37,509 bases of DNA from Myxococcales bacterium. Its GTDB lineage: Bacteria > Myxococcota_A > Polyangia > Fen-1088. The position numbers and the translations under genes are program-made. Below are positions 18,932 to 37,509 of the stretch, piece by piece; position 1 is the first letter of the stretch, and each line of letters begins with the position of its first letter. The notes under the pieces were generated by a model. It saw only the letters and a list, made by a program, of their open reading frames with translations. It was not told the origin of the DNA and did not search any database. The stretch lies in assembly GCA_003158735.1 (NCBI GenBank), contig PMLB01000125.1, positions 22,877-60,385 on the forward strand. Direction: 5' to 3'.

Positions 18932-18959
18932 TCTGTAAGGTTGAGGGGCCTCGCGCTAC
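18932..18959 (+). promoter_or_regulatory. Candidate ECF-sigma promoter (module 1, autoregulatory copy): TGTAAG-N16-CTAC
   Basis: TCTGTAAGGT-N11-GCGCTAC, identical in both blocks and in spacing to 21647-21674. Confidence 0.7.
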
Positions 18960-18980: not shown

Positions 18981-19559
18981 ATGCGCAAACCGCCGCCATC
19001 TGCCTCACCCCCGAGAGAATCCTTGGATTCAGTCGGGCTGGGCTCGGCGGATTCACTGGCCGAGCTGTACGATCGCTATGCCCCGCAGGTCGAACGCTGG
19101 GCTCGCCGGCTGGCCGGCCCACGCTTCGACGCCGAGGATCTCTTGCACGACGTATTTCTGGTTGTGCTGCGCCGGCACCACGAATTCCGCGACGAGGCCC
19201 GCATCACGACTTGGTTGTTTCGTATCACAGCCCAGGTGGTGCGCTGGCGGCGCCGCAACGATGTTCTCCGCCGCTGGCTGTGGGGTCTGCACGGACAGGC
19301 ACTGGCGGAATCAAGATCCAACGGCCCCACTCCCGTCGAGGAGATTGAACGGCGCGAGGAAGGCCTGCGCCTATACGCGGCCATGGATCGCCTGCCGGAG
19401 AAGTATCGGACCGTTCTGATCCTGTCCGCACTCGAAGAATCCAGCGGCGAAGACATCGCCGCGCTGCTTGGCATCGAAACCAACACCGTGTGGGTCCGTC
19501 TGCACCGCGCCCGCGCCAAGCTGGCTGATTTGCTCACCCAAGAGGAAGGGTTGCCATGA
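18981..19559 (+). CDS. ECF-family sigma-70 factor (module 1)
   Basis: Region 2 LYDRY...DAEDLLHDVF...TTWLFRI and region 4 LPEKYRTVLIL...EDIAALLGI..NTVWVRLHRAR. Alternative TTG start at 18969. Confidence 0.93.
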   Translation: MRKPPPSASPPRESLDSVGLGSADSLAELYDRYAPQVERWARRLAGPRFDAEDLLHDVFLVVLRRHHEFRDEARITTWLFRITAQVVRWRRRNDVLRRWLWGLHGQALAESRSNGPTPVEEIERREEGLRLYAAMDRLPEKYRTVLILSALEESSGEDIAALLGIETNTVWVRLHRARAKLADLLTQEEGLP

Positions 19560-21646: not shown

Positions 21647-21674
21647 TCTGTAAGGTCTGGCGCGGCTGCGCTAC
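21647..21674 (+). promoter_or_regulatory. Candidate ECF-sigma promoter (module 1, target copy): TGTAAG-N16-CTAC
   Basis: TCTGTAAGGT-N11-GCGCTAC starts immediately after the upstream stop and ends 9 nt before ATG 21684. Confidence 0.7.
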
Positions 21675-21683
21675 TGGAGCGAC

Positions 21684-23882
21684 ATGACAACCAATAACTT
21701 GTTTCGTGTGATGGCGACGGTCCTTTGCTTCACTGCCGCGTGCAAGGGCGATTTCGCAGCCGGAATTACTGGCAGCGGCAAAGACGGCTCCGCACGAGAG
21801 ACGGGCGCCTTGCAAGACGGCGGGAATCCGAACGCACAAGAGGCTGCACCTCCGAGCAGCACTGGCTCGGTTTCCTGCGACCCATTCCAACCGACCACCA
21901 AACCCATCACGCTTACCAATGTGATTGGCGTTGGCCAGGACACGGACGGGACCCTGTATGTCGTCGATCAACCGCAGCCCGGCGGTGAGCGCGTATTCGT
22001 CTCGTCGGGCGCCACGCTGCAGCGCCAGCGCATTGCCGGATCGGGGATCGATGGCTACAGCTACACCTTCTCCATCAGTGATCACATTCCGCCGTTCACC
22101 CTCAGACTGGACACGAATACCGCGGGTCCCACAGCCATGGGCGTGCTGCTGGGAACGACAGACGGCAAGACCTTCACCATCGGCCAGCAGGGCAACGTTC
22201 TCACGCTGGTTTCCGCCTCCCAGATCGCTGCCATGCCCGTCGCTAACCTTCCCGCAGAAACCATCGTCGAATGCGATGCAACCATTCCCGACGGACGCGT
22301 TTTGTTGGTGGTTCGTCCTCGCGATGACTGGACTCTGGAAGATTTGCGTGTGTTCTTCGGCACCCAGGGCGACCTGATCGAGCGACCCGTGGATCACGTG
22401 GATCGGCTTATGGGAGGTGATGGGACCTTCGTCTACTTCACGATCGACGGTGTGGCGGCCTCCGCTACCTACCCGCTCACCCTGACCATTGGCACCACTT
22501 CGTTCCCCTTGACCTTGGTGCTAACGGATTCCCCGCCCGCTGGAGAAAGCTACTTCTGTCTCGGGAATCCATCTCCTGATGGTGGCGCTGATGCTTGGGT
22601 GCCGCCCGCAGACGGGCCGTCGTGCCGCGCGCCTTCGCCTGATTATGGGCCGACGTCGGTCTTCCCGTTCCTCCCCGATGGCACCCCGGCGGCAACCACC
22701 ACCTGCCCCGCGGCGTGCGGAGACTCGGCGTGGCCACCGGGTTTTTCGTCGTTTCCCAACATCGACATTGCGCTTCCCTACGGATCGTGCGCGCCTGGCA
22801 CTCCCTCATGCTCGACAGGTGCGACGGTTCCGTGTGCCTGTGCCCAGGGAACGGGGGGACCCGTGCACGGCTTCAACTGTAGCTGCGAGGGTGGCACCTG
22901 GATCTGTGGTATCCGTACGGCCGGTGGGGCGATGTGTATGCCGTGTCCGGACGCTGGCGTGAGTGATGGCTTACCAAGCGGAGACGGCGCGAGCAAGCCT
23001 GACGGGTTGAATCTCACCGGGCTGACAGCGATGACACTCACCGTGACCTGGATCCCGCGGACGTCTGACCCCCCCGGTGCGTGCCACACCGATACCAAGA
23101 ACGTCTATTCCTTGGACATTCAGACTCGGGTGCTCAACTGGGAGCATTGTGCAGTCGATCCCAACACGGCAGCCGCCTACCGCAAGACCGAGACCCAGAC
23201 ACTCACAGGCTACGAGGTGACGGCCGCGCGGATGCTGCTCGCCTTCCTGTCGACAAGCAACCGGACCCAATGTGGGGCCGACGCGGATACCGAAACCCTT
23301 GACCTGACGTTTCCAGACCGGGTCCAAAAATACCAAGACGACTTCTATGCCTGCAACCCGCCACTCGACGGTCGAACCTATATCGCCAACATCACATGGA
23401 TCAGAGAATGGTTGGGCCAGTTGGGCCAGAATATGAATCCGCTTCCCAGCAGTTTCGTGAGCCTGTCGGTGACGTCCGATCTCAACCCCTTTGCCAGCGA
23501 CACAGCGATGACGGCCGCGACAGCGGCGTGCGGAGATGCTGTCTACCCCACGTACGATGTCACCGCGGCAACCAAGAAGCTCAGCTGGTCGACCTGCGTA
23601 TCCAGTTCGACTGGCTACAAGCTGCAGACCGGCAATCGAGTCCTGAGTCAAAGCGAATTCGCGAGTGTCATGCAAAGCTGGTCGGCAATTCAACCCGGCG
23701 CAACTGGAGACTGCTCCACGCCGCGCACCTCAAAGGAGATGGTGCTCACGACGGCGCCGAATGTGCCTTCGGCTTACTACCTGAACGATCTCGCTGTCTG
23801 CAGCCTCTCCAGCTACAACGGCTCCATGCCCGTTGTCGGGTTGGATGACTTCTCGGCGCTGCTTGTGTCGTTGGCTCACTAA
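21684..23882 (+). CDS. Multidomain Cys-rich lipoprotein of unknown function
   Basis: Lipobox FTAAC, a beta-rich N-domain, a Cys-rich middle, and two tandem ~140-aa four-Cys domains at the C-terminus. GGAG RBS. Confidence 0.75.
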   Translation: MTTNNLFRVMATVLCFTAACKGDFAAGITGSGKDGSARETGALQDGGNPNAQEAAPPSSTGSVSCDPFQPTTKPITLTNVIGVGQDTDGTLYVVDQPQPGGERVFVSSGATLQRQRIAGSGIDGYSYTFSISDHIPPFTLRLDTNTAGPTAMGVLLGTTDGKTFTIGQQGNVLTLVSASQIAAMPVANLPAETIVECDATIPDGRVLLVVRPRDDWTLEDLRVFFGTQGDLIERPVDHVDRLMGGDGTFVYFTIDGVAASATYPLTLTIGTTSFPLTLVLTDSPPAGESYFCLGNPSPDGGADAWVPPADGPSCRAPSPDYGPTSVFPFLPDGTPAATTTCPAACGDSAWPPGFSSFPNIDIALPYGSCAPGTPSCSTGATVPCACAQGTGGPVHGFNCSCEGGTWICGIRTAGGAMCMPCPDAGVSDGLPSGDGASKPDGLNLTGLTAMTLTVTWIPRTSDPPGACHTDTKNVYSLDIQTRVLNWEHCAVDPNTAAAYRKTETQTLTGYEVTAARMLLAFLSTSNRTQCGADADTETLDLTFPDRVQKYQDDFYACNPPLDGRTYIANITWIREWLGQLGQNMNPLPSSFVSLSVTSDLNPFASDTAMTAATAACGDAVYPTYDVTAATKKLSWSTCVSSSTGYKLQTGNRVLSQSEFASVMQSWSAIQPGATGDCSTPRTSKEMVLTTAPNVPSAYYLNDLAVCSLSSYNGSMPVVGLDDFSALLVSLAH

Positions 23883-24972: not shown

Positions 24973-27900
24973 CTACTTTTGGACGTAGATGATCTTCTTG
25001 CACGACGAGGTGCAAATACCATCGACGCCATTCTTGCTTCCGCTGTCGCACTCCTCGGGGCCGTTGGGATAACCATCGCCACAGTGGGGGCCCAACTTGC
25101 ATTGCGGAGTGCAGCCACCGTATGAGCCGTCGTTCTTGCCGTCGTCGCACTCCTCGTTTCCATTCACGATGCCGTCGCCGCAGTGAGGGGCGAAGACGCA
25201 ACTCGGGGCGCAGCCACCGTACTCGCCGTTGTTGTTGAGCGACCCGTCGTCACATTCTTCGGGCGGCTCGATCAAACCGTCGCCGCACCCACCTGGCAGA
25301 CGGCACGCGTCGGTGCAATTGGGATCGTTCGACATGGTGGGTTCGCATTCTTCCCCGTAGTCCGTGTCAATATTACCGTCGCCGCACCTGGGAGCCAAGC
25401 TGCAGTCGCTCTTGCAGGTTCCGTAGCTGCCGTCGTTGACGCCGTCGTCACATGCCTCGTCGCCATTCGTGATGCCGTCGCCGCAACGCCCGCCGCGCTT
25501 GCAGTTCGACGTACAGCCACCATACACAGCGTTGGGATCGCTGCTGGTTGCGTTCTTAGCGCCGTCGTCGCACTCCTCATCGAAGTCGGTTTGCACCACG
25601 CCATCGCCACATCGTGCGGGCAGCTTGCACCCTGGGGCGCAGCCCTTGGCTGAGCCATAGTCGTCGCTGTTGATGCCGTTGTCGCACTCCTCGCCGTCAC
25701 TGACCACGCCGTCGCCGCAATAGGGTCCCCACTTGCACTGCGAGGTACAGCCGGTGTACGCGGGTTTGTCGTTGGGACCCGGGCAGCTCGCGGGAGCTGT
25801 GCCGGTCCCGTCGCCGCAGTCGCACTCTTCCCCGCCCGTCACCACGCCGTCGCCGCAGCGAGGCTGGCAGGCGGATCGGGTCGTCGTGAAACCACTTAGG
25901 GTGAGCTGGTAGTTCGACTCGGGCGGGTGCCGGTCAGCGCCGAAGATCGCGATCTCGTAGACCTTGCCGGTGACCAGCCCCAGCGGGACGGTGCGCACGC
26001 GGAAATCATCCCCGTCCTTGGCCGTCGGAGGCAGGGGGGTAGTGTTGGTAGGCGAACAGGCGGCTGAGCCAGCGGTGACCCCAGTGATGTTTCCTGTTGC
26101 GTCGAGGCAGCCACCTTCCGTGACACTGGCGTTGCCGCCGGTTAGGTCGCTGACCGTCACTTTTCCAGGCAACTGCTGGTGGACGCCGCCGAGATCGAGG
26201 ACCAGAACGCCATTGATGAAGATGAAGAGATCGTCGTCGCCGTAGAAACTGAGACTGATGCCTGCGGCACCGTTGTAGACGAAGTAGTAGCGCGCCTCAT
26301 CAGTGAAGTAATTGTCATGCTTGACGCCGGGAGTATTTGCGACCCAGCAGCCATTGCTCAGCGGATTCTGGTTTGGGCAATCCGCCTGGACCACGCGCGG
26401 TGGGAAGAAATACTGGTCGCCTTGGCAGGTGGCCCAGATGGCAACGCCACTGCTATGGTTCCAGTAGGGCCATAGGTCACATAGCGTGACCTGGCTGGGA
26501 TTCAGCGGGTCGAGGGGGTAGAAGCCATTGTCCGGGCCAGCTAGATGCGTCTTGCTGGCGTACTGGTAGACATTTCCGCCGATGCTGGTCATTTCGAGAA
26601 CGTCTGTGAAGGTCTTGTTGACCGTGTTGTCATCGTTGAACCACTGCTTGAAGCTGGCGGCATCTTTGAATGCGGGTGTCGTCCCCAACCAAACCGGGCC
26701 GCCCGGGGTGCTCTGGGTATAGCGGACCAGTGTGCCGGCAGAAACGCCAGCGTTGCCGGTCACGATGACAGCCGTGCCGATATTTCCGCCCAAATAGCCG
26801 CCAGCCCCGTTGGAAAGAGGACTGTCGTTGCCGGCCTGGGTGTAGCCGCTGGGGATGTGGAGCGCAGCATTGCCGATGTTCCAGTCACTGAACTGGCAAG
26901 CGCAGGTCGTCGTGGTACCGGGCTGCGGCTTGCCGTTCAACAGATTCGCAGCCACGATTCCCCAACAACGTGCGGTCGAGTCGTTGCCCTTGGAAGGACC
27001 GCCCGAGTTGGGAACACAGATGGTCGTGGGCGAAGTCGAGGGCGATTTCTTCGTGCCCAGGAAAAAGAAGTCCGGGTGCCCGCCGGGAGAGACGTTTTCC
27101 GGCTGGAAGTCACGGTAGGTGATGGGGAGTTCGAGGCATTGTCCTGAGCCCGATTTGCACGTCGAGGAGTCCTGGGCGGTCGCAGGCGGGCAAGCGAAGC
27201 CACCTTCAACCTTGCACTTCGACGAACAACCATCGAGGTCCACCAAGTTTCCATCGTCGCAATCTTCGCCTGGATCGAGGTTTCCGTCGCCGCAGGCCGA
27301 GGTACAGGCCTGGGTCTTGCCCGTCGTGGGGTCCTGGCAGCTCGGCTCCTTGGTGCAAGTCTTGGAGCAGCCCTTGCCGTCGCCATAGAAGAGCCCGTTT
27401 ACGGCCTTGCATCCGGTTGGCAGATTGTTCGGGTCAATGCCGCAGTCGCACAGCTCGCTCTTCTCCACAATTCCGTTGCCACACTTGGCCGTTGTGCAAG
27501 TCTGTCCCGCCGTCGGACAGTCAGCGCCGGGCTCGATCTGGCAGGTGCTGGAGCAGCCATCGCCACTCGTGGTGTTGCCGTCGTCGCACTGTTCGCCTTT
27601 GAGGACCTTGCCGTCTCCGCACTTGGCCGTGCACGCCTTGCCAACCACCCGACACTGGAAACCAGTCTCGACCGTCTTACAATCGCTCGAGCAACCATCG
27701 CCGCTGACCGTGTTGCCGTCGTCGCACTGTTCGCTCCCTTCGAGCGCGCCATTGCCGCACTTGACGATCGGGCAGACGCACAACTGGCCCGGGGTACAAA
27801 CGCAGCCCGCGCCCTTCATCTTGCAGTCGGCCGAACAGCCGTCGCCATCCTTCATGTTGCCGTCGTCGCACACTTCGCCAATCGAAAGCTGGACAACGCC

Positions 27901-28599
27901 ATCACCACATCGTGCGTCCGGCTTGCAGGGAGCGCCTGGCGTCGGGCAGCTCCAACCGGCCTCGACCTGACAAACGCTGCTGCAGCCATCGCCGCTGTTG
28001 CTGTTGCCGTCGTCGCACTTTTCGCCCGATTCGATACGCTTGTTGCCACACTGGGAAACCAGGGTGCAAGGTTGTCCGGGGACACATTTGTAGCGGGGGT
28101 CCTGCACGGTGCAGGTAGAATTGCAGCCGTCGTTGTCGAGAGTGTTGCCATCGTCGCAGACCTCACCCGCGCCGACGACTTTGTCGCCACAGATGACCAG
28201 TCGCTGGCAGGCCCCCGCGGGCGGACATTTCCAGTGGGGCTCGACCTTGCAGGCACCATTGCACCCATCGCCGGGCAAGGCGTTTCCGTCGTCACACTCC
28301 TCGATGCCATTCTGATTGTTGATTCCATCGCCGCAGGCCTCAGGATACTCGGCCTTGCAGCCCAGAGTGCTGTCGCTGTTGCAGACCCCAGAGCCGCTCG
28401 TCGTCGTCGTGCCGCCGGACGAGGAGGCGATGGTCGAGATGATGTTTCCACCGAGCGCTCCGGCCGCGCCAGAATTCCCACCTCCCACGCCTCCCCCACC
28501 GCCTCGCGCACCTCCGTTGTTTTCTACCTCCGAGCTGTTACAGGCAGCTGCCGCCAACACAAAAAGGAACATTGCATGGCCGGTGTGGGCTGTATTCAT
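24973..28599 (-). CDS. Large lipoprotein with myxobacterial Cys-rich repeats (DUF4215/Myxo_disulph type) and a central fibro-slime (PA14-like) domain
   Basis: Lipobox LAAAAC. I count 8 CG(D/N)x..E.CD repeats before and 8 after a central domain containing [14 protein letters not shown]...[23 protein letters not shown]. Confidence 0.88.
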   Translation of the reverse strand: [1208 protein letters not shown]

Positions 28600-28938: not shown

Positions 28939-30360
28939 TTACCTCAGCCACCGCCGCAAGACGACCCACCGACAGCCGCGAACTACAGTGTCATGAAACT
29001 GCCACACGATGAAGACGTAGAACACCGGCTCCAAGAAGAATTTGAAGCGGTGGTTTTCGCCCTGCTCGCATAAGATGGAAATCGCAAAAATGTAGAACGC
29101 CGGCAATAGCATTGCCACTCTGCAGGCGTAGTCCTTCTCCCTCCGCCCTTGCGCAAGCCATATCACACCCGCCAAAGACAAGAGAACAATCAAGACTGGC
29201 CCAGAGAAGATCAAGTCGTAGACGGACTTCCACGGAAGCAGCTCGATGTGCTTGCGCGGGGAGTAGGTGCTCGACGGACGCCAGTAGATCTTGAGGTTGT
29301 TGTAGTAGGCACTGAGAAGGACCGCCACAGGAGCTGTCGTGAGGTAGGTCTTGTATTCACTCTCAAGCTGCCTATCGAACTCTACGTAGCAGAGCCTATT
29401 GTAGTTGAGGCTGCCGTCCAGCTTGTTCTTCCGCGTGAGGACTCTTGGCAAAGCACTGGGCAATTCTCCGTCTGGGTCAACCTCGTAGGGCCAGGTGTAC
29501 TTCATGACTCCAGCGGAACGGACCAGATTGAGTCCGGTAAAGGTGGATGTGCTGAGGAGCCCAAACTGGCCGTATTGCTTCGCCACGTACGACCCACAGA
29601 TTCCGCCAGTTATCAGCAAGAAAAGCACCACCGTGCGCCACGGCACCTTCAACAAGTATAGAGAAACAGCCATAACCAAGAGAAAGGGGAGTTGAAAGAG
29701 CGACCTGAAGAAGAACAACAATACCGACGAAGCGGTGACCGCAAAGATGGAGGGACAGCCGCGTCTCAGTTTCCACAAGGAATAGTACATCCACAGAACA
29801 AGAACGCTGGACAGCAATGTGGTATCCAATAGTGTTGAATACACCAGGGCGGCGGGATGGAGCAGGAACAAGAGGGAGGCAAGAAGGGCAATTGTCTTTC
29901 CCACCAGGCCTGACAGCCAACGGAACATGAGCAGGCCGCACACGCCGTAGAGGATTGACCACACAAGATACAGGGCGTCGTCCACCTGCTTGAGAGCGGC
30001 GTGTATGTCCAGGGAGGGCCAGAGATGGACGAGAATGGCCCTGGCGAGGTCGAACCCCGGAGGCTGAATGTGAATATGGGTGAGTGATTCGAGGGGCGAG
30101 TCGCGGAGGTCCAGTATCGACACGGTCTGCATGAGGGTCTCGGACGAAAACCACTCGCGTTGGTGACCGTCGGTCAAATAGGGTTGGGCCTGATGTCGCA
30201 AGGCCACTTGAAACAGGAGGCCGAAGATCAGAATGGCAGCGCCAGCGAGGGGAAGCTTCCTTGCCTTGTCGATGATGGAGCGCAAACTGGCCTTGCCAAT
30301 CTCGCGACTGAGGCGACTGGTGTCGCGGGAACCTGCTCCTGGTGACTCGGAAGGGACCAC
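28939..30360 (-). CDS. Polytopic membrane protein, GT-C fold (ArnT/PMT-like) glycosyltransferase candidate
   Basis: Roughly ten TM stretches, HIQPPG in the first loop, and ENHRFKFFLEP before the last TM. Visibly more AT-rich than its neighbours. The start codon is uncertain. Confidence 0.55.
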   Translation of the reverse strand: MVPSESPGAGSRDTSRLSREIGKASLRSIIDKARKLPLAGAAILIFGLLFQVALRHQAQPYLTDGHQREWFSSETLMQTVSILDLRDSPLESLTHIHIQPPGFDLARAILVHLWPSLDIHAALKQVDDALYLVWSILYGVCGLLMFRWLSGLVGKTIALLASLLFLLHPAALVYSTLLDTTLLSSVLVLWMYYSLWKLRRGCPSIFAVTASSVLLFFFRSLFQLPFLLVMAVSLYLLKVPWRTVVLFLLITGGICGSYVAKQYGQFGLLSTSTFTGLNLVRSAGVMKYTWPYEVDPDGELPSALPRVLTRKNKLDGSLNYNRLCYVEFDRQLESEYKTYLTTAPVAVLLSAYYNNLKIYWRPSSTYSPRKHIELLPWKSVYDLIFSGPVLIVLLSLAGVIWLAQGRREKDYACRVAMLLPAFYIFAISILCEQGENHRFKFFLEPVFYVFIVWQFHDTVVRGCRWVVLRRWLR

Positions 30361-30480
30361 GGCGCGGACTCTATCCTATGATGGCGTGGGCGAGTTGGTA
30401 GTTTGTTGGGACGCTTTCCCCACGCGCACCCCGGCGGTTCGACCACGTACATTTCGACTTGCTATCTGCCCATACGAGAG

Positions 30481-31698
30481 TCAGCGGGTGCAGCCTGGCC
30501 ACCAGCAAGGAACCGTGCGGCTCCAATCGGCTATCGCTCGCCAGCGCGGCGTATCGTCCTCGACGGTTTCCAGCAGGCCGTACACGCTGCCGTCGCCGCC
30601 GCGAACATCGACGTAGTGGTGAAAGAGCGTGCCACCCAGTGCTTTCCAGCGGCTCAGCATGTCTGCGTACACCTGCTGCATGCGCGGATGCCGCGCCACC
30701 TGGCGGCGGAACTCGGCCGTCGCGCCAGTCTGGTTGTATCCCAAGTCGATACCCATCGAATACGCGGTGAACACCAGGCCGTGCGATTGAGCCAGATCCA
30801 AGTCCGCCGCCACATCCGCGGCCATGTTGGCCGTCACGTCGGCAGCCAGCAGATCGACCGCCTGGTCGACGCCTGCCGCGCCCTGCGATTCCAGCGTTGT
30901 CCAGCTATCAACGTTGCCACTGAAGAATCGGCTGACGGCGTACTCGTCGAAGCCGTGTTGCCAACAGACCTGGTTGCCTTCGTTCACCCACAAGGGACAT
31001 TCGATCGCTTGCTGTCCGACACCGCTGTTTCCGGCCTGGGCCACCACGACGCAACGGACACGATGGCGTCCTGTCGCACCGAAGACCTCGTTCTTGAAGA
31101 TGTCGCAGGCCTGCGCCAGGCGCATGCCCGCCCACTCCGCCGCGCACCAGTCCGTCACGTTCCAGCGGGCTTGGCATTGGGCAAGCGCATATTGGGCGCG
31201 GCCATTCCAGTATTCATCGCCGATCTCGATGCGCGCAATCAGCCCCGGATCCAGATTGTCCCGTAAGTATTCCGCAAGGCCGCGCAAGTAACCATCCGTG
31301 GCTTGGGCAGGAATGCTGAACCAGCAGTCGACCTGCGCGCGGTTGCAGATCGCGACCAGAACCTCGATGGGCGCGCCCCGGTCGGAGTCCAACCAGTTGT
31401 CGGCTAGCTGGGTCCGCGTGTTCCACTCGGTGACCGATGCCGAATCCAGGGTGTCGCCCCATCGGATGCTGCGCATCTGCCCTAGCTTTTCAAGATAGAG
31501 CGGATTGAAGGCCGATCCGTCGGCCAGTCCTGCGGCGGTGCGGTTGGTTCCAAGGTAGTTGTCGCCGTCGCGCACCCACAGCCAGGTGCCGTCCACGCCA
31601 GCCGAGCTTTTGTCCGCGCCCATGCGAGCCACGTAGAGATCGCCGCTGCACGCCGCGAAAGCGAGCAACGCGAGCGCAACCAACCAACGCGCGTGCAC
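30481..31698 (-). CDS. Lipoprotein, clan GH-A-like glycoside hydrolase homologue with a degenerate active site (putative pseudoenzyme)
   Basis: Lipobox FAAC. Collinear with 34320-36089 (ICNRAQVDCWFSIP vs LCNRAHVDYWINVP; LDPGL vs LDPSL). It has IEIGDEYWN in place of IEYSNEVWN and AYSMG in place of SYEGG. Confidence 0.75.
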   Translation of the reverse strand: MHARWLVALALLAFAACSGDLYVARMGADKSSAGVDGTWLWVRDGDNYLGTNRTAAGLADGSAFNPLYLEKLGQMRSIRWGDTLDSASVTEWNTRTQLADNWLDSDRGAPIEVLVAICNRAQVDCWFSIPAQATDGYLRGLAEYLRDNLDPGLIARIEIGDEYWNGRAQYALAQCQARWNVTDWCAAEWAGMRLAQACDIFKNEVFGATGRHRVRCVVVAQAGNSGVGQQAIECPLWVNEGNQVCWQHGFDEYAVSRFFSGNVDSWTTLESQGAAGVDQAVDLLAADVTANMAADVAADLDLAQSHGLVFTAYSMGIDLGYNQTGATAEFRRQVARHPRMQQVYADMLSRWKALGGTLFHHYVDVRGGDGSVYGLLETVEDDTPRWRAIADWSRTVPCWWPGCTR

Positions 31699-31703
31699 CA
31701 GGC

Positions 31704-32525
31704 CTACCGTCCTCGCAACGCCTGACGAGCCTTGCTGGCGAAGTTACCCTGCGGAAAACGCGAGATGATCTGCCCGAGATCGGAGCGTGCGCCCGCACTG
31801 TCGCCCAAGCGTGATCGACAGGACGCGCGTCCCCACAGCGCCCGTTCCTCCAGCGCATCGCCAGAGCCGTCAAGGCCCGAGCCGAGATCAGCAACGGCCT
31901 GGTTGCAGCGGCCCACTGCACCGCGAAGCTCACCACGCAGCACGGCCAGCTCGCGTGCCCGCGGAAGTTCCGTCAACTGCGTCCGGTCGAGGATCTCAAG
32001 TGCGTGGACGCGATCATCCAGCTCCAGAAGCGCATCGATGCGTGCCAGGGTTGCTTCGCGCGAGAGGGTTCCGTTCGGGAATCGCTTGCCGTACTCGTCG
32101 AGCGCGGACAGCGCCGACCGTGCGTCGTGTTGTTGCCGCAGAAGCTGGAGTGCGGCGGTCAGCAGACGCGATTCCTCGGCGATGCTGCTGGGAACCGGCT
32201 CCACGGCGAGCACCGGGTTGCGCGCAGGCGCCGCTGGTTGTGGCGGCGTGGTCAACCGGGCGACACGGCCCCGCAACAGCACCGTGGCAGCAACAGCACC
32301 CGACACCGCGACCAGCAGGCCTGCGGCCAGCGCCAGGCGCAACATGCGCATTCCTTGGCGTCTGCGCGAGCCGTGCAGTTTGTCTGCCACCCGAGACAGC
32401 AGCTGGGGATCGCCTGTCGGCACCATGGCTGCCTGCCGTATCAGATCGCCGGCCCGCTGCTCGAGCGGCGGACTCGTTGGGTCGTGGTCGCTCCAATGCT
32501 CGTGAATCGGGCTGCTGTCGTTCAT
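31704..32525 (-). CDS. Single-TM, C-terminal TPR protein; putative anti-sigma factor (module 2)
   Basis: ATGA-coupled to the sigma gene. TM LALAAGLLVAVSGAVAATVLL, then EESRLLTAALQLL...ALSALDEYGKRFPNGTLSREA...RFPQGNFA. Paralogue of 19556-20767. Confidence 0.7.
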   Translation of the reverse strand: MNDSSPIHEHWSDHDPTSPPLEQRAGDLIRQAAMVPTGDPQLLSRVADKLHGSRRRQGMRMLRLALAAGLLVAVSGAVAATVLLRGRVARLTTPPQPAAPARNPVLAVEPVPSSIAEESRLLTAALQLLRQQHDARSALSALDEYGKRFPNGTLSREATLARIDALLELDDRVHALEILDRTQLTELPRARELAVLRGELRGAVGRCNQAVADLGSGLDGSGDALEERALWGRASCRSRLGDSAGARSDLGQIISRFPQGNFASKARQALRGR

Positions 32526-33088
32526 GGGGCCTCCCTCCTCTCGATGCGCTCGAGCTCGCGCAGAAACTGGGCCCGTGCTCGGCGCAGTCGCACCCAGATT
32601 GTGGCCAACTTCATTCCCGTCAGCTTCGCGACATCCTCGCCCGACATCGACTCCATTTCGAACAGAATCAGCACGCTCCGATACTTCTCGTCCATCCTGT
32701 CCAGGATCCGGTAGACGAGCTCGACCGACTGCTGGCGCTCGATCGACTCGACCGGGCTGGTCGTCGAGGAATTGAGGGCACGTCCAGCTTCCTCGGCGCG
32801 GTGCAAACCGAGCCAGCGCAACTTGCGGTCTCTGCGCCGCCGGTCAAACACGATGCGCTCGGTGATACGGTACAGCCAGGTCGTTATCTTGGCATCGCCG
32901 CGAAATTCATGCAGCCGGCGCTGAACCACCATGAAGACCTCATGGACCATGTCTTCAATGTCGGAATGCGGCCCGGCCAGCCGCGCAATCCAGTGCATCA
33001 CATCGGGCGCATGGACTCGGTAGATTCCGTCGAGGTCGAGCGGAGCCACGTACTCGTTCGCTGCCACAGTGGACTCGGCGCAGTTCAT
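32522..33088 (-). CDS. ECF-family sigma-70 factor (module 2)
   Basis: IYRVHA...DIEDMVHEVF...TTWLYRI and MDEKYRSVLILFEME..SGEDVA...ATIWVRLRRAR. ATG 33088 is chosen because the promoter motif lies at 33101-33126. ATG 33130 is the alternative. Confidence 0.92.
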   Translation of the reverse strand: MNCAESTVAANEYVAPLDLDGIYRVHAPDVMHWIARLAGPHSDIEDMVHEVFMVVQRRLHEFRGDAKITTWLYRITERIVFDRRRRDRKLRWLGLHRAEEAGRALNSSTTSPVESIERQQSVELVYRILDRMDEKYRSVLILFEMESMSGEDVAKLTGMKLATIWVRLRRARAQFLRELERIERREAP

Positions 33089-33100
33089 TCCGCCAGTCTC

Positions 33101-33126
33101 GTGTCGGTCGAGTTCGGAACCTTTCA
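33101..33126 (-). promoter_or_regulatory. Candidate ECF-sigma promoter (module 2, autoregulatory copy): TGAAAG-N16-ACAC
   Basis: The minus strand reads TGAAAG gttccgaactcGACcg ACAC, directly after the stop of 33127-34137. It matches 34275-34300. Confidence 0.65.
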
Positions 33127-34137
33127 TCATAAACGTCCTAGGCTTGCACCCAGGATCACATTGATGTGCAGGGCCGGCAACTCGTAGCCCATGGACGGGA
33201 TGCCTTCGATTCGCAGCGTCGTGCGATGCGGCCAGCCTGAGGCGGCGATTTCCAGCCAAAATGCGTGTCGGCGACCGCAGAGCAGCGCACGTACACCGGC
33301 CCCGGCGCCGACGTCCATACCGAAGTCGCTGAGATCGTTGGGATAGCCTGACCCAGCCGCGACTGCGGCAGCCAGCAACGCCTCGGCGTGCAGGTCGATG
33401 CGCAAACGCCCCCCGCCAGCGCGAAAACGCGGCCCAGCTTGAAATTCGGCTCGCGTCCAACGCGCGTTGCCCAGGCCGATCGGCGACGTGCGCAGCCAGT
33501 CAACTTGAAGGGCCGCTCGCAAACCCCAGCGCCAACCAGCCGGAGAGCCCGTGCCTTGCAAGGCCAGTGTCGGCGCAAGGAACGACGCCCACGACAGGCC
33601 AGCCCCAGCGCCAAGGTCGAAGACTGCCGACGGTGGAAGAAACGGCGGTGCAGGTGGGGGCAGCGGATGTGGCGGTGGTGGCGGTGGCGGCGGCAACTCT
33701 GGCGGCGGTGGCGCCGGCGGCGGCTCTTGGCGCGGGCTGGGAGAGTGAGGCGGGGGGAGTCGTGGCGGGGGCAACAAGTGGATGGGCGGAGATTGACGAT
33801 TGAGCTCGGGCGAAGGAACCAGCGCCGGCCTGAACTCGGCCTCCCACGCCGCGACTACGGCGGCGACCGCTGCAGCGAGATCCCGACACGACGCCGAGGC
33901 CGCGAGGTGGCGTTCTCCGAGCAACCCACCGTCATCGCGCCGCAACTCGATCCTGATTGTCTCACCCTCGGTCGACAACACCGCACGATCCGGCGACGTG
34001 CCCTCGGCGGCGTCAGGAAGTAGCCGCCGCAGTCTTTCGGCGACCTCAGCGGGATCAGGACAGGTAGCCGTTCCCGAGACCGTCACCATGGGATGCGCCA
34101 GCAGCAGCACCAGCAGGGTCTGGGCGATCACGACCAC
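33127..34137 (-). CDS. Exported protein with a Cys pair, poly-Pro linker and beta-strand-rich C-terminus; possible small outer-membrane barrel (module 2)
   Basis: TLLVLLLAHP signal-like start, TCPD...ASCRDLAAAVAAVVAAW, a poly-Pro linker, and strands ending INVILGASLGRL. The start is placed at GTG 34137 (or 34131) by alignment with 20783-21646. Confidence 0.6.
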   Translation of the reverse strand: MVVIAQTLLVLLLAHPMVTVSGTATCPDPAEVAERLRRLLPDAAEGTSPDRAVLSTEGETIRIELRRDDGGLLGERHLAASASCRDLAAAVAAVVAAWEAEFRPALVPSPELNRQSPPIHLLPPPRLPPPHSPSPRQEPPPAPPPPELPPPPPPPPHPLPPPAPPFLPPSAVFDLGAGAGLSWASFLAPTLALQGTGSPAGWRWGLRAALQVDWLRTSPIGLGNARWTRAEFQAGPRFRAGGGRLRIDLHAEALLAAAVAAGSGYPNDLSDFGMDVGAGAGVRALLCGRRHAFWLEIAASGWPHRTTLRIEGIPSMGYELPALHINVILGASLGRL

Positions 34138-34274
34138 CCCGTGGGTCGCCGAACCGTCGGCCAGTGAGCTGCTTCTTCCACGTCTCAGAGTTAGCGCGCA
34201 CAGGCCGGCACGGTCAACGGGTGAAGCACAAGGTCGGCCGAGACGGGCCCAACGCATCGGCCCATCAAGAAAGG

Positions 34275-34300
34275 TGAAAGTTTTCTCACCTGACAAACAC
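34275..34300 (+). promoter_or_regulatory. Candidate ECF-sigma promoter (module 2, target copy): TGAAAG-N16-ACAC
   Basis: TGAAAG ttttctcacctGACaa ACAC, 19 nt before ATG 34320. It is overlapped by the inverted repeat AGGTGA...TCACCT (34272-34291). Confidence 0.65.
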
Positions 34301-34319
34301 TGGCAGCCAAGGAGCCACA

Positions 34320-36089
34320 ATGATCGCGACAAGAACTTCCCGTCTGGCCACGCTGATTGGGTTGGGCCTGGTCCTGGGTTGCAGTTCCCCCGGAGGCGGT
34401 GTTTCCGGATCAGGAGGCACCACAGGATCTGGCGGCAAACCGGGCACTGGCGGCACATCGGACGCTGGAGGCGTCCAGGGTTCGGGCGGCACCGCCAGCA
34501 GCGGTGGAATAGTCAACGGCGCCTCAACTGGTAGCAGCGGAGCGACGGCGACAGGCGGTGAGACAACTAGCATTGGTGGCACGACAGATACAGGTGGCGC
34601 GACGACTGGTAGTGGCGGCGGCGTGAGCAGCGGTGGCACGGCTGGCGGCGGTGGAGCGACGGCGACAGGCGGCTCCACGAATGGCAGCGGCGGACGCACG
34701 GGCTCAGGTGGCGCGACAACGGGTAGCGGCGGACGCGCCGGCTCAGGTGGCCCCACGACTGGCAGTGGCGGACGCTCGGGTTCAGGTGGCGCGACGATTA
34801 GCAGTGGCGGACGCACAGGCTCAGGTGGCACCACGTTGGCCAGCGGGGGAACGCAAGGGTCCGGGGGACAAGTCACGGGCGGGCGTACCGGCTCGGGAGG
34901 TGTGCAGGGCACCGGCGGCACGCCAGGCACCGGCGGCTCGACCTCCACGGGCGGCACGCTAGGCACCGGCGGCTCGTCAAGCACCGGCGGCTCGACCTCC
35001 ACGGGCGATCTTGTCAACCCCGCTCCCGGCAGCAAGTTCTTCATCGGCGCGAACTTTTGGAACGAGGGATGGGAACCAGCGAGCGACTTCTTCTCCAGCA
35101 ACGTCAACTGGGCAACGACAACCAACCCATGGAACCCCACGCTGCTGACCGACCTTGCGCCCTATGCACACGTTCTGCGGTTCATGGACTGGAACAGAAC
35201 CAACGACCAAGTCGCTGGCAGTTGGGCAGCGCGCGCCCAGCCCAACGTGGCGCCGGGAGATCGCGGCGTGGCCTACGAATGGCAGATTGATCTGTGCAAC
35301 CGCGCTCACGTCGACTACTGGATCAACGTTCCCACGCTTGCCGACGATGACCACGTGACCAAGCTCGCGCAATTGATTCAGCAGAAATTGGATCCAAGTC
35401 TGCGCATCTACATCGAGTACTCGAACGAAGTGTGGAACGGCGGGTTCCCGCAAGCGACCTACGCCGACAACCAAGGCGTGGCGGCGAACATGCCCGGCAT
35501 GAATCAGTGGTACAAAGGGTGGGCCTGGTATGTGTACCGCGCGGTGCAGATCTTCCAGGGTTTCGAGGCTGTGTTCGGCAAGAACAGCCCACGCCTGGTC
35601 AAAGTCCTCTCAGGCCAGGCCGGCTACACGGGCGATGCGAGCAATCCGGCGCCGGTCTGCGCATGGCATCTGCAGTCGCTGGCCGACAAGACAGTCAACC
35701 CACAGAGCGAAACCATCAACGCTTACGCGATTGCGCCGTACTTCGGAGGCACAGACACCACCGCGCTCGCCAGTGATATCCCGGATGAAGCGACGCTGGT
35801 GCAGAATCACGTCGCGTGTTTGAAGGGCACGGGCATTCCCCTGATTAGTTACGAGGGAGGGCAGGACTCGTACGCGGCGACCAGTTGCACCGCGGTCGCT
35901 ACCGATCCGGCGATGACCAACTTGTATGTCACATATTTGAACTCCATGATGTCGGCGGGACTGTTGGGCCCGTTCATGCAGTACACGCATGTCGGCAATT
36001 GCTGGGGGCTGAAGATGGCGACCGGCGATAGCAATACCAAGGCGCCAAAGTACCAAGGCGTGCTCAATTGGCTGGCCGCTCACCCGTAG
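34320..36089 (+). CDS. Lipoprotein glycoside hydrolase, clan GH-A-like (family not assignable by eye), with a long Gly/Thr/Ser linker
   Basis: Lipobox LVLGC and about 205 aa of linker. Motifs LRFMDW, IEYSNEVWN (Glu codon 35427-35429), AIAPYFG and ISYEGGQ (Glu codon 35853-35855). AAGGAG RBS. Confidence 0.8.
   Translation: MIATRTSRLATLIGLGLVLGCSSPGGGVSGSGGTTGSGGKPGTGGTSDAGGVQGSGGTASSGGIVNGASTGSSGATATGGETTSIGGTTDTGGATTGSGGGVSSGGTAGGGGATATGGSTNGSGGRTGSGGATTGSGGRAGSGGPTTGSGGRSGSGGATISSGGRTGSGGTTLASGGTQGSGGQVTGGRTGSGGVQGTGGTPGTGGSTSTGGTLGTGGSSSTGGSTSTGDLVNPAPGSKFFIGANFWNEGWEPASDFFSSNVNWATTTNPWNPTLLTDLAPYAHVLRFMDWNRTNDQVAGSWAARAQPNVAPGDRGVAYEWQIDLCNRAHVDYWINVPTLADDDHVTKLAQLIQQKLDPSLRIYIEYSNEVWNGGFPQATYADNQGVAANMPGMNQWYKGWAWYVYRAVQIFQGFEAVFGKNSPRLVKVLSGQAGYTGDASNPAPVCAWHLQSLADKTVNPQSETINAYAIAPYFGGTDTTALASDIPDEATLVQNHVACLKGTGIPLISYEGGQDSYAATSCTAVATDPAMTNLYVTYLNSMMSAGLLGPFMQYTHVGNCWGLKMATGDSNTKAPKYQGVLNWLAAHP
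34683..34838 (+). repeat. 4 x 39-bp intragenic tandem repeat encoding GSGGRxGSGGxTx
   Basis: Units start at 34683, 34722, 34761 and 34800. They are in frame, within the linker. Confidence 0.85.
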
Positions 36090-36132
36090 ATGCAGTTCCT
36101 GCTCAACGGACACCGGCAGACGAGGAGACAGA

Positions 36133-37509
36133 ATGATCGCAGCAAAGACGTCCCGTTCGGCCACGCTGATTGGTTTGTGCCTGGTCCTGGGTTGTAGTTC
36201 TGGCGGGGGCGGTGGTGTTTCGGGATTGGGGGGCACCACCGCAGGGTCGGGCGGCACGAATGAGTCGGGTGGCAAGCAAGGACCTGGTGGCGCACCTGAC
36301 ACTGGTGGCGTCCAGAACCCGGGCGGCACCACAGGCAGCGGCGGCTCGCCTGGCAGCGGCGGTGCGACCGCTTCAGGTGGCGCGACAACTGGCGGCGGTG
36401 GTGCGACGGCTTCAGGTGGCGCGACAATGGGCAGCGGTGGTGTAACGGCTTCAGGTGGTGCAACGTCGGCCAGCGGTGGAACCCAGGGCTCCGGAGGACA
36501 GGGCACGGCTGGGCGTAATGGCGCGGGCGGCACGACGGGCGCAGGCGGCACACAAGGCGCGGGCGGTGCGACGGCTTCAGGTGGCACAACCGCCGGCACT
36601 GGTGGACGCGCAGGTTCAGGTGGTGCAACGTCGGCCAGCGGAGGAACGCAAGGCTCCGGAGGACAGGGCACGGCTGGGCGCTCTGGCACGGGCGGTGCGA
36701 CGGGCACAGGCGGGCGTACTGGCACGGGCGGTGCGACGGGCACAGGCGGCACACAAAGCACGGGCGGAGCGACGACCGGCAGCGGCGGGGCGCAGGGCTC
36801 GGGCGGGACAACGGGAAGCGCGACCCGTCCCAGCTACAACATGGGAACGGGATTTTTCGTGCTGAACGGAAAGCTCTACGACGCCAACGGCGTGGAGTTC
36901 AGGATCCGGGGCGTCGACCGGAACCACTACGACATGGATGCGCCAGGAATCCCGAAGACGCACGCCAACACGGAGCGCACGGTGCTTTTCTTCAACGGGG
37001 AATGGGGCAGCACCATGACCCGCAACGTCCAGGTCATGCAGCAAGACATGATCAACAATCACATCGTTCCCATGCCAGGCAACTGGGAGGGAACCTGTGA
37101 CGAGAGTACGGCGACCCTCACCACCATCGTCGACCGCTGGGTCGCTCAGGTGTCCACCTACAAGGCGCTGGACAAGTACATGATCCTCAACATCGCCAAC
37201 GAGTGGGGCCCCAGCGACAGCACCGTTTGGCGCGACTCATACGTCACCGCCATCCAGCGCCTGCGTACCGCCGGGTACACCTGCACCATCTCCGTCGACT
37301 CGGGAGGCTGCGGACAGGACAACGCCGACCTGGCGAAGTACGCACAGGCCGTATTCGACGCGGACCCACAGAAGAATGTCATCTTCGACCAGCACATCTA
37401 CGGCAACTGGGGCCTAGACGCCCAGAAGCAGAGCTGGCAGCAGGGCCTCATCGCCGGGTTCGACGCACTGGTGGCGACGGGCCTTCCGGTGATCATCGGT
37501 GAGTTCGGC
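36133..37509 (+). CDS. Lipoprotein GH5 (subfamily 8-like beta-mannanase) with a long Gly/Thr linker; runs off the window end
   Basis: Not in the ORF track because it has no stop. Manual translation: MIAAKTSRSATLIGLCLVLGC, about 210 aa of linker, then GFFVLNGKLYDANGVEFRIRGV, ANTER, ILNIANEWG, VDSGGCGQD, FDQHIYG and LPVIIGEFG. GAGGAG RBS. Confidence 0.88.
   Translation, partial: MIAAKTSRSATLIGLCLVLGCSSGGGGGVSGLGGTTAGSGGTNESGGKQGPGGAPDTGGVQNPGGTTGSGGSPGSGGATASGGATTGGGGATASGGATMGSGGVTASGGATSASGGTQGSGGQGTAGRNGAGGTTGAGGTQGAGGATASGGTTAGTGGRAGSGGATSASGGTQGSGGQGTAGRSGTGGATGTGGRTGTGGATGTGGTQSTGGATTGSGGAQGSGGTTGSATRPSYNMGTGFFVLNGKLYDANGVEFRIRGVDRNHYDMDAPGIPKTHANTERTVLFFNGEWGSTMTRNVQVMQQDMINNHIVPMPGNWEGTCDESTATLTTIVDRWVAQVSTYKALDKYMILNIANEWGPSDSTVWRDSYVTAIQRLRTAGYTCTISVDSGGCGQDNADLAKYAQAVFDADPQKNVIFDQHIYGNWGLDAQKQSWQQGLIAGFDALVATGLPVIIGEFG
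36451..36680 (+). repeat. 65-bp intragenic direct repeat (165-bp period) in the linker
   Basis: 36451-36515 versus 36616-36680, with three synonymous differences. Encodes SGGATSASGGTQGSGGQGTAG. Confidence 0.85.

Follow-up and report, generated by a model that had tools for sequence, protein, structure and literature searches.

A conserved pair of ECF-type promoter-like elements at a sigma factor and glycoside hydrolase-like locus of an uncultured Polyangia bacterium

In FecA/FecR/FecI cell-surface signalling, an outer-membrane protein, an inner-membrane anti-sigma factor and a sigma factor of the extracytoplasmic function (ECF) type are encoded together, and fecA is itself a target of FecI. 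Casas-Pastor et al. 2021 (PMC7826278) describe ECF autoregulation in general terms as an own promoter before the sigma gene, an anti-sigma gene at +1 and targets nearby; they class the SigX-OprF cluster, in which an outer-membrane protein is encoded with an ECF sigma factor, as ECF102, and report for ECF21 of Bacteroidetes an anti-sigma factor fused to, or encoded next to, an outer-membrane beta-barrel (supplement). In the same work the predicted promoter motifs of ECF210 (the Sorangium/Sandaracinus/Chondromyces group) are not conserved, and the covered part of the supplementary text contains no 'GAAAG' string. Promoters of the Bacillus subtilis sigma-W/X/M/V type, as presented in PMC5758882, combine a -35 element tgaAAC with a short -10 element (CGTA, CGAC or CGTC) across spacers of 14-17 bp and serve autoregulated sigma operons, and a T-tract right after the -35 element modulates their selectivity. 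Here we analyse a stretch of 37,509 nucleotides from a Myxococcales bacterium (assembly GCA_003158735.1, contig PMLB01000125.1, positions 22,877 to 60,385), called the window below and numbered from its first letter, in which two copies of a bipartite motif face opposite directions: P1 between a gene for an outer-membrane barrel protein and the ECF sigma gene 'sigma 2', and P2 before the gene of a 589-aa hydrolase-like protein, GH589.

The locus resembles the general plan of ECF autoregulation, with a promoter-like element of its own before the sigma gene, a putative anti-sigma gene at +1 and candidate targets nearby. P1 and P2 are bipartite like the B. subtilis sigma-W/X/M/V promoters, and the P2 copies also show a T-run after TGAAAG; unlike those promoters, the -35 element here ends in G and the invariant -10 core is CAC, and the source is an uncultured Polyangia metagenome-assembled genome represented by sequence only. 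We propose that the ECF sigma factor encoded at 33088-32522 recognises P1 and P2 as its promoters, a reading to which sequence comparison leads us to give a probability of roughly 0.77. A literature search, judged mostly from titles and partial texts, returned no description of a TGAAAG...CAC ECF motif or of this Polyangia module.

An earlier note on this DNA had linked the sigma gene to the hydrolase operon by the pattern TGAAAG-N11-GAC-N2-ACAC. Both copies match this pattern exactly, the minus-strand copy reading TGAAAGGTTCCGAACTCGACCGACAC and the plus-strand copy TGAAAGTTTTCTCACCTGACAAACAC, and they lie 12 nt before the sigma ATG and 19 nt before the hydrolase ATG, as the note had placed them; the two 26-mers are identical at 18 of 26 positions. 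There is no third exact match in the window, and each of 100 dinucleotide shuffles gave none; allowing two mismatches added a single site, 29693(+). The genome-wide scan that the note had proposed returned the same two exact matches only (6,494,936 bases, 64% G+C), against none for a reversed control pattern and an expectation of 0.086 under independent, identically distributed letters. Because these two copies served to define the pattern, their rarity alone is weak evidence, and the weight comes from relatives.

Syntenic orthologues with the same gene order were found on the metagenome contigs L054, L057, L102 and L103 and on the genome contig L104, their sigma factors being 90-96% and their barrel proteins 76-94% identical to those of the window. 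A weight matrix built from 23 sites of relatives only scored the copies. The earlier note had made its case depend on conservation upstream of orthologues, and both copies are kept with a 17-nt gap in all five (P1 23.7-26.1 bits, P2 17.9-22.2 bits), with the changes confined to the spacer. Even in the most diverged orthologue, L104, where P2 reads TGAAAGTTatctgaccgaacgGACACTGG, all 6 differences among the 26 nt fall in the spacer, and its -10 element is nearer the family consensus. As for the motif itself, the bipartite ECF-type character claimed by the note was borne out in the boxes and their spacing, with a free spacer sequence, whereas the inner GAC does not belong to the family motif: GAC-N2 is kept in close orthologues and occurs neither in the copy of L104 nor in paralogues. 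The conserved core of the family consists of TGAAAG(G/T)T and, 15 nt further on, CAC, which leaves 17 nt between TGAAAG and CAC.

Paralogous loci repeat the arrangement. In many genomes from the same Polyangia family sigma and barrel homologues are neighbours, 14 of the 19 best-per-genome sigma loci having a barrel match at the same locus, and at least 13 paralogous loci of this family carry the motif between the barrel gene and the sigma ATG. In L004-L015, the barrel end ...GRF(P/R) is followed by the stop TGA, AAG(G/A)T, 15-16 variable nt, CAC(A/G)(A/G)G, 12-14 nt and the sigma ATG. Ten of these paralogous loci have a second same-strand copy 1.5-1.9 kb downstream, after the anti-sigma gene and 25-30 nt ahead of a lipoprotein gene that has a good Shine-Dalgarno (SD) sequence. 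Among 40 sigma-homologue matches, 24 have a P1 candidate at the junction and 16 a downstream P2 that shares its -35 hexamer; variant pairs also use one hexamer twice, with TGCAAG/TGCAAG at one locus and TGTAAG/TGTAAG at the other ECF sigma gene of the window. Across 81 family genomes, a strict family pattern matched 54 times versus 12 for the reversed control, and 12 same-contig, same-strand motif pairs were spaced 1.2-1.9 kb apart. Relatives thus share, upstream of the sigma gene, a pair of short boxes with fixed spacing, as is expected of an ECF-type promoter, and the link between sigma 2 and the hydrolase operon is supported by the retention of both copies in the five orthologues and by the two-promoter architecture in paralogues.

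In P1, the -35-like TGAAAG occupies 33126-33121 and the -10-like CAC 33103-33101 (ACAC 33104-33101), separated by 17 nt. The element abuts the barrel gene's stop, a tandem TGA TGA, and is enclosed by an open frame beginning at ATG 33130/33127. In P2, TGAAAG at 34275-34280 and CAC at 34298-34300 enclose a T-rich 17-nt spacer, and the SD sequence AAGGAG at 34310-34315 precedes ATG 34320(+). A scan for sigma-70-like promoters over 31500-36300 returned 0 sites. The relatives-only matrix, run over about 13 million positions of the own genome, ranked P1 third at 26.1 bits, behind the two copies of a paralogous locus on contig C46 of the same genome (P1 28.5 bits, P2 26.6 bits). A scan of the own genome for TGAAAG-N17/18-CAC gave 61 sites, 9 of which precede an SD sequence, a start codon and an open reading frame (ORF) of at least 100 aa, a filter that P1 itself fails; among those 9, only the C46 pair and P2 look genuine.

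Genes of the GH589 type were followed separately. TGAAAG-N17-CAC stands before the ATG at 6 of the 18 loci examined (L053-L057, L102) and TGAAAG-N17-TAC at two more (L063, L064); seven lack the motif and have different N-termini or are only 44-52% identical, and three could not be judged. At L053, L055 and L056 the motif precedes the GH589-type gene with no barrel or sigma match nearby. Downstream in the window, before the GH5 ATG, lies what remains of a duplicated P2 (Table 1). At the equivalent position, before the second gene, L063 has an intact motif copy (22.6 bits), whose likeness to P2 starts at the G preceding TGAAAG.

Several observations weigh against the proposal, on the boxes, the distribution and the transcripts as set out here and on paralogous sigma factors and the start codon as set out further below. 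The classic ECF boxes, 'AAC' in the -35 and 'CGT' in the -10 element, are absent: a G replaces the C that closes 'AAC', and CAC stands in place of CGT. More distant paralogues carry TGAAAC ... CGTCAC or CGACAC, and together with TGAAAG/CAC here this points to a variant rather than the classic ECF consensus. The leader of P1 is short, with 12 nt from CAC to ATG, and only GGCGGA adjoins ATG 33088. Hydrolase homologues of other genera that are 45-57% identical (L039-L042) have no match of at least 11 bits directly upstream; at L041, a 13.2-bit match lies about 500 nt from the ORF. Transcription data came from 21 sequencing runs, 20 of which contain some part of the stretch, as contigs from RNA libraries that cover at best 0.36 of the sampled words. 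Runs X1-X4 gave short, low-depth contigs over the sigma, barrel, GH589 and GH5 genes within 30400-37509; one of them stops at 33101, and others run across the two motif copies. As these are assembled contigs with no pile-up of molecule ends listed, no transcription start site can be read from them. In two runs the barrel/sigma junction is spanned by contigs, at 32878-33147 and 32890-33187 (6 differences each); DNA carry-over is possible, and if they represent RNA, transcripts of the barrel gene also run on into sigma 2.

The assignment of sigma 2 to the ECF (group 4) sigma factors follows from its having regions 2 and 4 only (Pfam Sigma70_r2 2.7e-12, Sigma70_r4_2 1.6e-11), with a length of 188-202 aa depending on the start, and from its score of 79.2 with the ECF superfamily model TIGR02937 of NCBIfam (cut-off 42.9); all NCBIfam subfamily models stayed below their cut-offs. 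The earlier note had redefined the start as 33088, and this start is probably correct. Between the motif and the sigma ATG, in-frame stops occur at 5 of 18 paralogous loci (L007, L008, L010, L011, L032) and in the own paralogue on C46, and the N-termini of paralogous sigma factors have the length that a start at 33088 predicts, their ATG lying about 19 codons before the conserved LDxxxLYRxHA as compared with 17 codons in the window. On a contrary reading there is no internal promoter. Translation of sigma 2 would start at 33130/33127, coupled to that of the barrel gene, and the minus-strand copy would simply be codons 2-10 of the longer protein, its likeness to the region upstream of the hydrolase being chance or a relic of duplication. 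This reading draws on the better AGGA 5 nt before ATG 33130, on the 4-nt ATGA overlap of that codon with the barrel stop, on the in-frame ATG 33127, whose frame is open in the close orthologues L054, L057, L102 and L104, and on the RNA-library contigs that span the junction. Yet wherever the stops close this frame the DNA motif is kept, the ATG at the 33130 position is absent in L054, L102 and L103, and the orthologue differences in the P1 stretch hit all three codon positions. Moreover, the motif is equally kept at the non-coding P2 sites and is therefore not explicable as codons for MKGSELDRH. We regard the longer protein as very improbable.

A second rival accepts P2, and perhaps P1, as a real ECF-type promoter that is served mainly by a paralogous sigma factor such as that of C46, so that adjacency would be no guide to the regulon. 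The own genome holds 10 sigma-homologue matches at E<=1e-20, and the C46 copies have the same boxes and the highest scores, which makes cross-recognition possible. By the family matrix alone P2 is unexceptional, with 17.9 bits, rank 11 genome-wide and 9 genome positions above 18 bits, although only about 0.01 hits of its quality are expected within a few kb of the sigma gene, by arithmetic from the matrix-scan counts. The spacers carry no locus-specific signature, as P1 and P2 of one locus are identical at 5-9 of 18 positions and the mean between loci is 6.7. The gap, by contrast, does separate the groups: P1 and P2 agree at 17/17 nt in the window and all its orthologues and at 18/18 nt in the C46 group. 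P2 adjoins sigma 2 in 5 of 5 syntenic orthologues, each paralogous locus has a pair of its own, and the variant -35 hexamers match within a locus. Service mainly by a paralogue is thus unlikely, and recognition of both copies by sigma 2 is preferred.

The paralogous module occupies 30387-34145 of C46, in the order barrel, P1 (31359), sigma, anti-sigma and P2 (32998). Its P2 precedes the gene of a 364-aa lipoprotein with a Cys-rich repeat like that of the 1208-aa protein encoded at 24973-28599 of the window.

The least probable of the alternatives considered denies that the conserved block is a promoter and sees in it the operator of another DNA-binding regulator, a transcribed leader or an RNA element. 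Conservation at P2 does extend through the leader (ACTGGCAGGCGAGGAG) to the ATG, and an inverted repeat, AGGTGA-N8-TCACCT at 34272-34291, overlaps the P2 -35 box. Against this, the motif consists of two short asymmetric boxes at a fixed distance around a free spacer, its orientation is constant and its distance to the start codon near-constant, the Rfam search gave no match at E<=1, and the repeat is not family-wide. In L104 its outer A-T pair has become C-G and one inner pair is lost, and it is absent from the paralogous P2 sites; it was also flagged as terminator-like on the minus strand.

With P1 and P2 taken as promoters of sigma 2, the following course can be suggested. P1, beginning at the barrel stop, would drive sigma, anti-sigma and the 405-aa hydrolase-like protein as one autoregulated unit, from a very short leader, and P2, running in the opposite direction from the barrel/hydrolase intergenic region, would drive the 589-aa hydrolase and the GH5 gene. 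The 405-aa gene starts 5 nt after the anti-sigma gene and is therefore probably co-transcribed from P1; likewise, the GH5 gene starts 43 nt after GH589 and is probably co-transcribed from P2. By analogy with ECF sigma factors, TGAAAG(G/T)T would be contacted by sigma region 4 and the CAC-centred -10 element by region 2, across the fixed 17-nt gap. The membrane anti-sigma factor would hold the sigma factor until a periplasmic signal releases it, with the periplasmic N-domain of the barrel protein as the predicted partner of the anti-sigma TPR-like domain. From these arrangements we infer the sigma dependence, the transcription starts, the extents of the operons and the signal, whereas the presence, uniqueness and conservation of boxes and spacing, the gene families and the folds were read directly in this analysis. 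The note had also placed the barrel gene outside the autoregulated unit, which agrees with the lack of any matrix hit upstream of it in the window or in the flanks examined at paralogous loci.

Table 1. Positions of the elements and genes discussed (numbering of the window).
Feature	Positions	Strand	Basis
P1, ECF-type promoter-like element	33101..33126	-	exact match; relatives-only matrix 26.1 bits; conserved in orthologues and paralogues
P2, second copy	34275..34300	+	exact match; relatives-only matrix 17.9 bits; kept before GH589-type genes
Remnant of duplicated P2	36110..36132	+	ACAC and leader ACACCGGCAGACGAGGAGACAGA before GH5 ATG; -35 box lost
ECF sigma gene 'sigma 2', 188 aa from ATG 33088	32522..33088	-	Pfam and NCBIfam
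Putative single-pass anti-sigma, periplasmic TPR-like domain	31704..32525	-	Pfam TPR_6 1.9e-6
405-aa secreted protein	30481..31698	-	distant paralogue of GH589 catalytic domain
Outer-membrane barrel protein gene	33127..~34257	-	predicted fold; start codon uncertain
'GH589', 589-aa lipoprotein-like secreted protein	34320..36089	+	predicted (beta/alpha)8 C-terminal domain
GH5 cellulase-family gene, cut by window end	36133..37509	+	Pfam Cellulase PF00150 E 4.7e-14

The gene upstream of P1 is predicted to encode a small OmpX/OmpA-like 8-stranded barrel. Its product comprises a signal-peptide-like stretch, an N-domain with two invariant Cys, a Pro-rich linker and the C-terminal barrel, and in the family alignment a hydrophobic stretch precedes an invariant Cys. 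The C-terminal strands of the AlphaFold model reach a pLDDT of about 90, and Foldseek returned 22 matches at E<=0.001, including OmpX (1qj9, E 1.2e-6, TMt 0.65), OmpA (9fzc_A, TMt 0.73), NspA and OmpW. Relatives end in ...GRF, ...GRFR or ...GRFP, with F331 nearly invariant; the protein of the window ends in ...GRL, followed by TGA TGA (33127-33135(-)), so that another residue stands in place of the aromatic one with which outer-membrane barrels usually end.

The start codon of the putative anti-sigma gene overlaps the sigma stop by 4 nt (ATGA). The gene lies at +1 of sigma in relatives, and its product is 35% identical to the C46 equivalent; a Pfam search of the putative anti-sigma factor gave no anti-sigma domain match. 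A complex prediction of the barrel N-domain with the periplasmic domain of the anti-sigma factor scored 0.66, versus 0.01 for the best control, with at least 85% contact agreement between runs and a partner pLDDT of at least 68. It passed the mark set for such predictions, which 58 of 80 solved complexes attain, as do 2 of 110 mismatched pairs; these counts apply only roughly, because alignments of our own were used here. The predicted contacts involve anti-sigma residues 119-126 and 154-161 and barrel residues 84-93, and the N-domain contains a conserved AAWEAEF helix. The predicted contact supports, and does not show, binding of the barrel N-domain to the anti-sigma factor, and the barrel protein is probably part of the sigma system. 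A further proposal is tentative and somewhat doubtful: the barrel may form the arm in the outer membrane of a trans-envelope switch with three parts, in which the Pro-tethered N-domain docks on the anti-sigma TPR-like domain and gates the sigma factor, as a module with a private two-promoter regulon that has multiplied into several paralogous copies per genome within this Polyangia family and is here rewired to secreted glycan hydrolases.

The locus can be compared with known systems. With ECF21 it shares the genetic coupling of an outer-membrane barrel with a single-pass anti-sigma factor (here putative) and an ECF sigma factor, and the barrel is separate in some ECF21 subgroups; unlike in ECF21, where the barrel is fused to or follows the anti-sigma factor (+1/+2), it is here a separate gene at -1 with its own N-domain and Pro-rich linker, in a different phylum. 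The joint encoding of an outer-membrane protein, an inner-membrane anti-sigma factor and an ECF sigma factor is shared with FecA/FecR/FecI and SigX-OprF. No FecR or TonB-receptor Pfam match was found among the locus proteins, and the barrel is 8-stranded and OmpX-like, unlike the TonB-dependent 22-stranded transducer of the FecIRA system. Unlike fecA, a FecI target, the barrel gene lies outside the proposed sigma-dependent promoters. The system is of a kind already known, an ECF sigma factor with an autoregulatory and a target promoter, and it is set apart by a promoter that starts at the barrel stop and by the predicted contact between barrel and anti-sigma factor, which, if true, would be a new variant of trans-envelope signalling.

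On the hydrolase side, GH589 has a Gly/Ser/Thr-rich linker and then a C-terminal domain whose model (pLDDT 91.6) is predicted to be a clan GH-A-like TIM barrel. Foldseek aligned it with GH51, GH79, GH53 and GH26 enzymes at E about 1e-7 and TM 0.5-0.62, and with GH10 as well. This domain has an invariant E140 and nearly invariant N139 and E282, suggesting an N-E acid/base motif and a nucleophile Glu. The 405-aa protein is a distant relative of this domain (BLASTP, 26% identity over 363 columns, E 2.7e-17), and the synteny of its gene is kept in L054, L104 and L118. Pfam, NCBIfam and PDB sequence searches of the barrel protein, GH589, the 405-aa protein and the 473-aa protein described below gave no match, and thus placed GH589 in no named CAZy family.

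If P1 and P2 act as proposed, the regulon would comprise two promoters and about five genes, and the locus would supply a promoter consensus for an uncharacterised, Myxococcota-restricted ECF clade that is known only from metagenome genomes, together with a likely sigma start moved to 33088. It would also connect a module for envelope signalling with secreted enzymes of glycan breakdown that belong to an unassigned clan GH-A-like family. As an arrangement that keeps recurring, barrel stop, P1, sigma, anti-sigma, P2 and target may offer natural, possibly orthogonal sigma/promoter pairs for synthetic biology.

Some minor observations concern the surroundings. Downstream of the 405-aa gene, 28939-30360(-) encodes a 473-aa multi-pass membrane protein with a 73%-identical homologue in L055, where the homologous gene is divergent from, and adjoins, a GH589-type gene that bears P2; this hints at a functional link between the 473-aa protein and GH589. 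The relative G009 (L118 / L024) has a 664-bp deletion equivalent to 32675-33338 of the window, by which it has lost P1, the C-terminal end of the barrel and sigma residues 1 to about 152. It retains the anti-sigma, 405-aa and 473-aa genes and has no adjacent GH589 gene, and at about 33566 its homology to the window stops. Elsewhere in the own genome, C93:930(-) and C310:680(+) are near-identical sites of the form TGAAACGTTTGG-N8-CCGTCACTAG, which look like promoters of another ECF sigma factor with classic AAC/CGTC boxes. The other ECF sigma gene of the window, at about 18981-19559 (Pfam r2/r4_2), has a matching pair of its own, TGTAAGGT-N13-GCTAC; no long barrel ORF ends at its first copy, 18934-18959(+), which precedes the sigma ATG, and the second copy, 21649-21674(+), lies 35 nt before a 732-aa ORF at 21684-23882.

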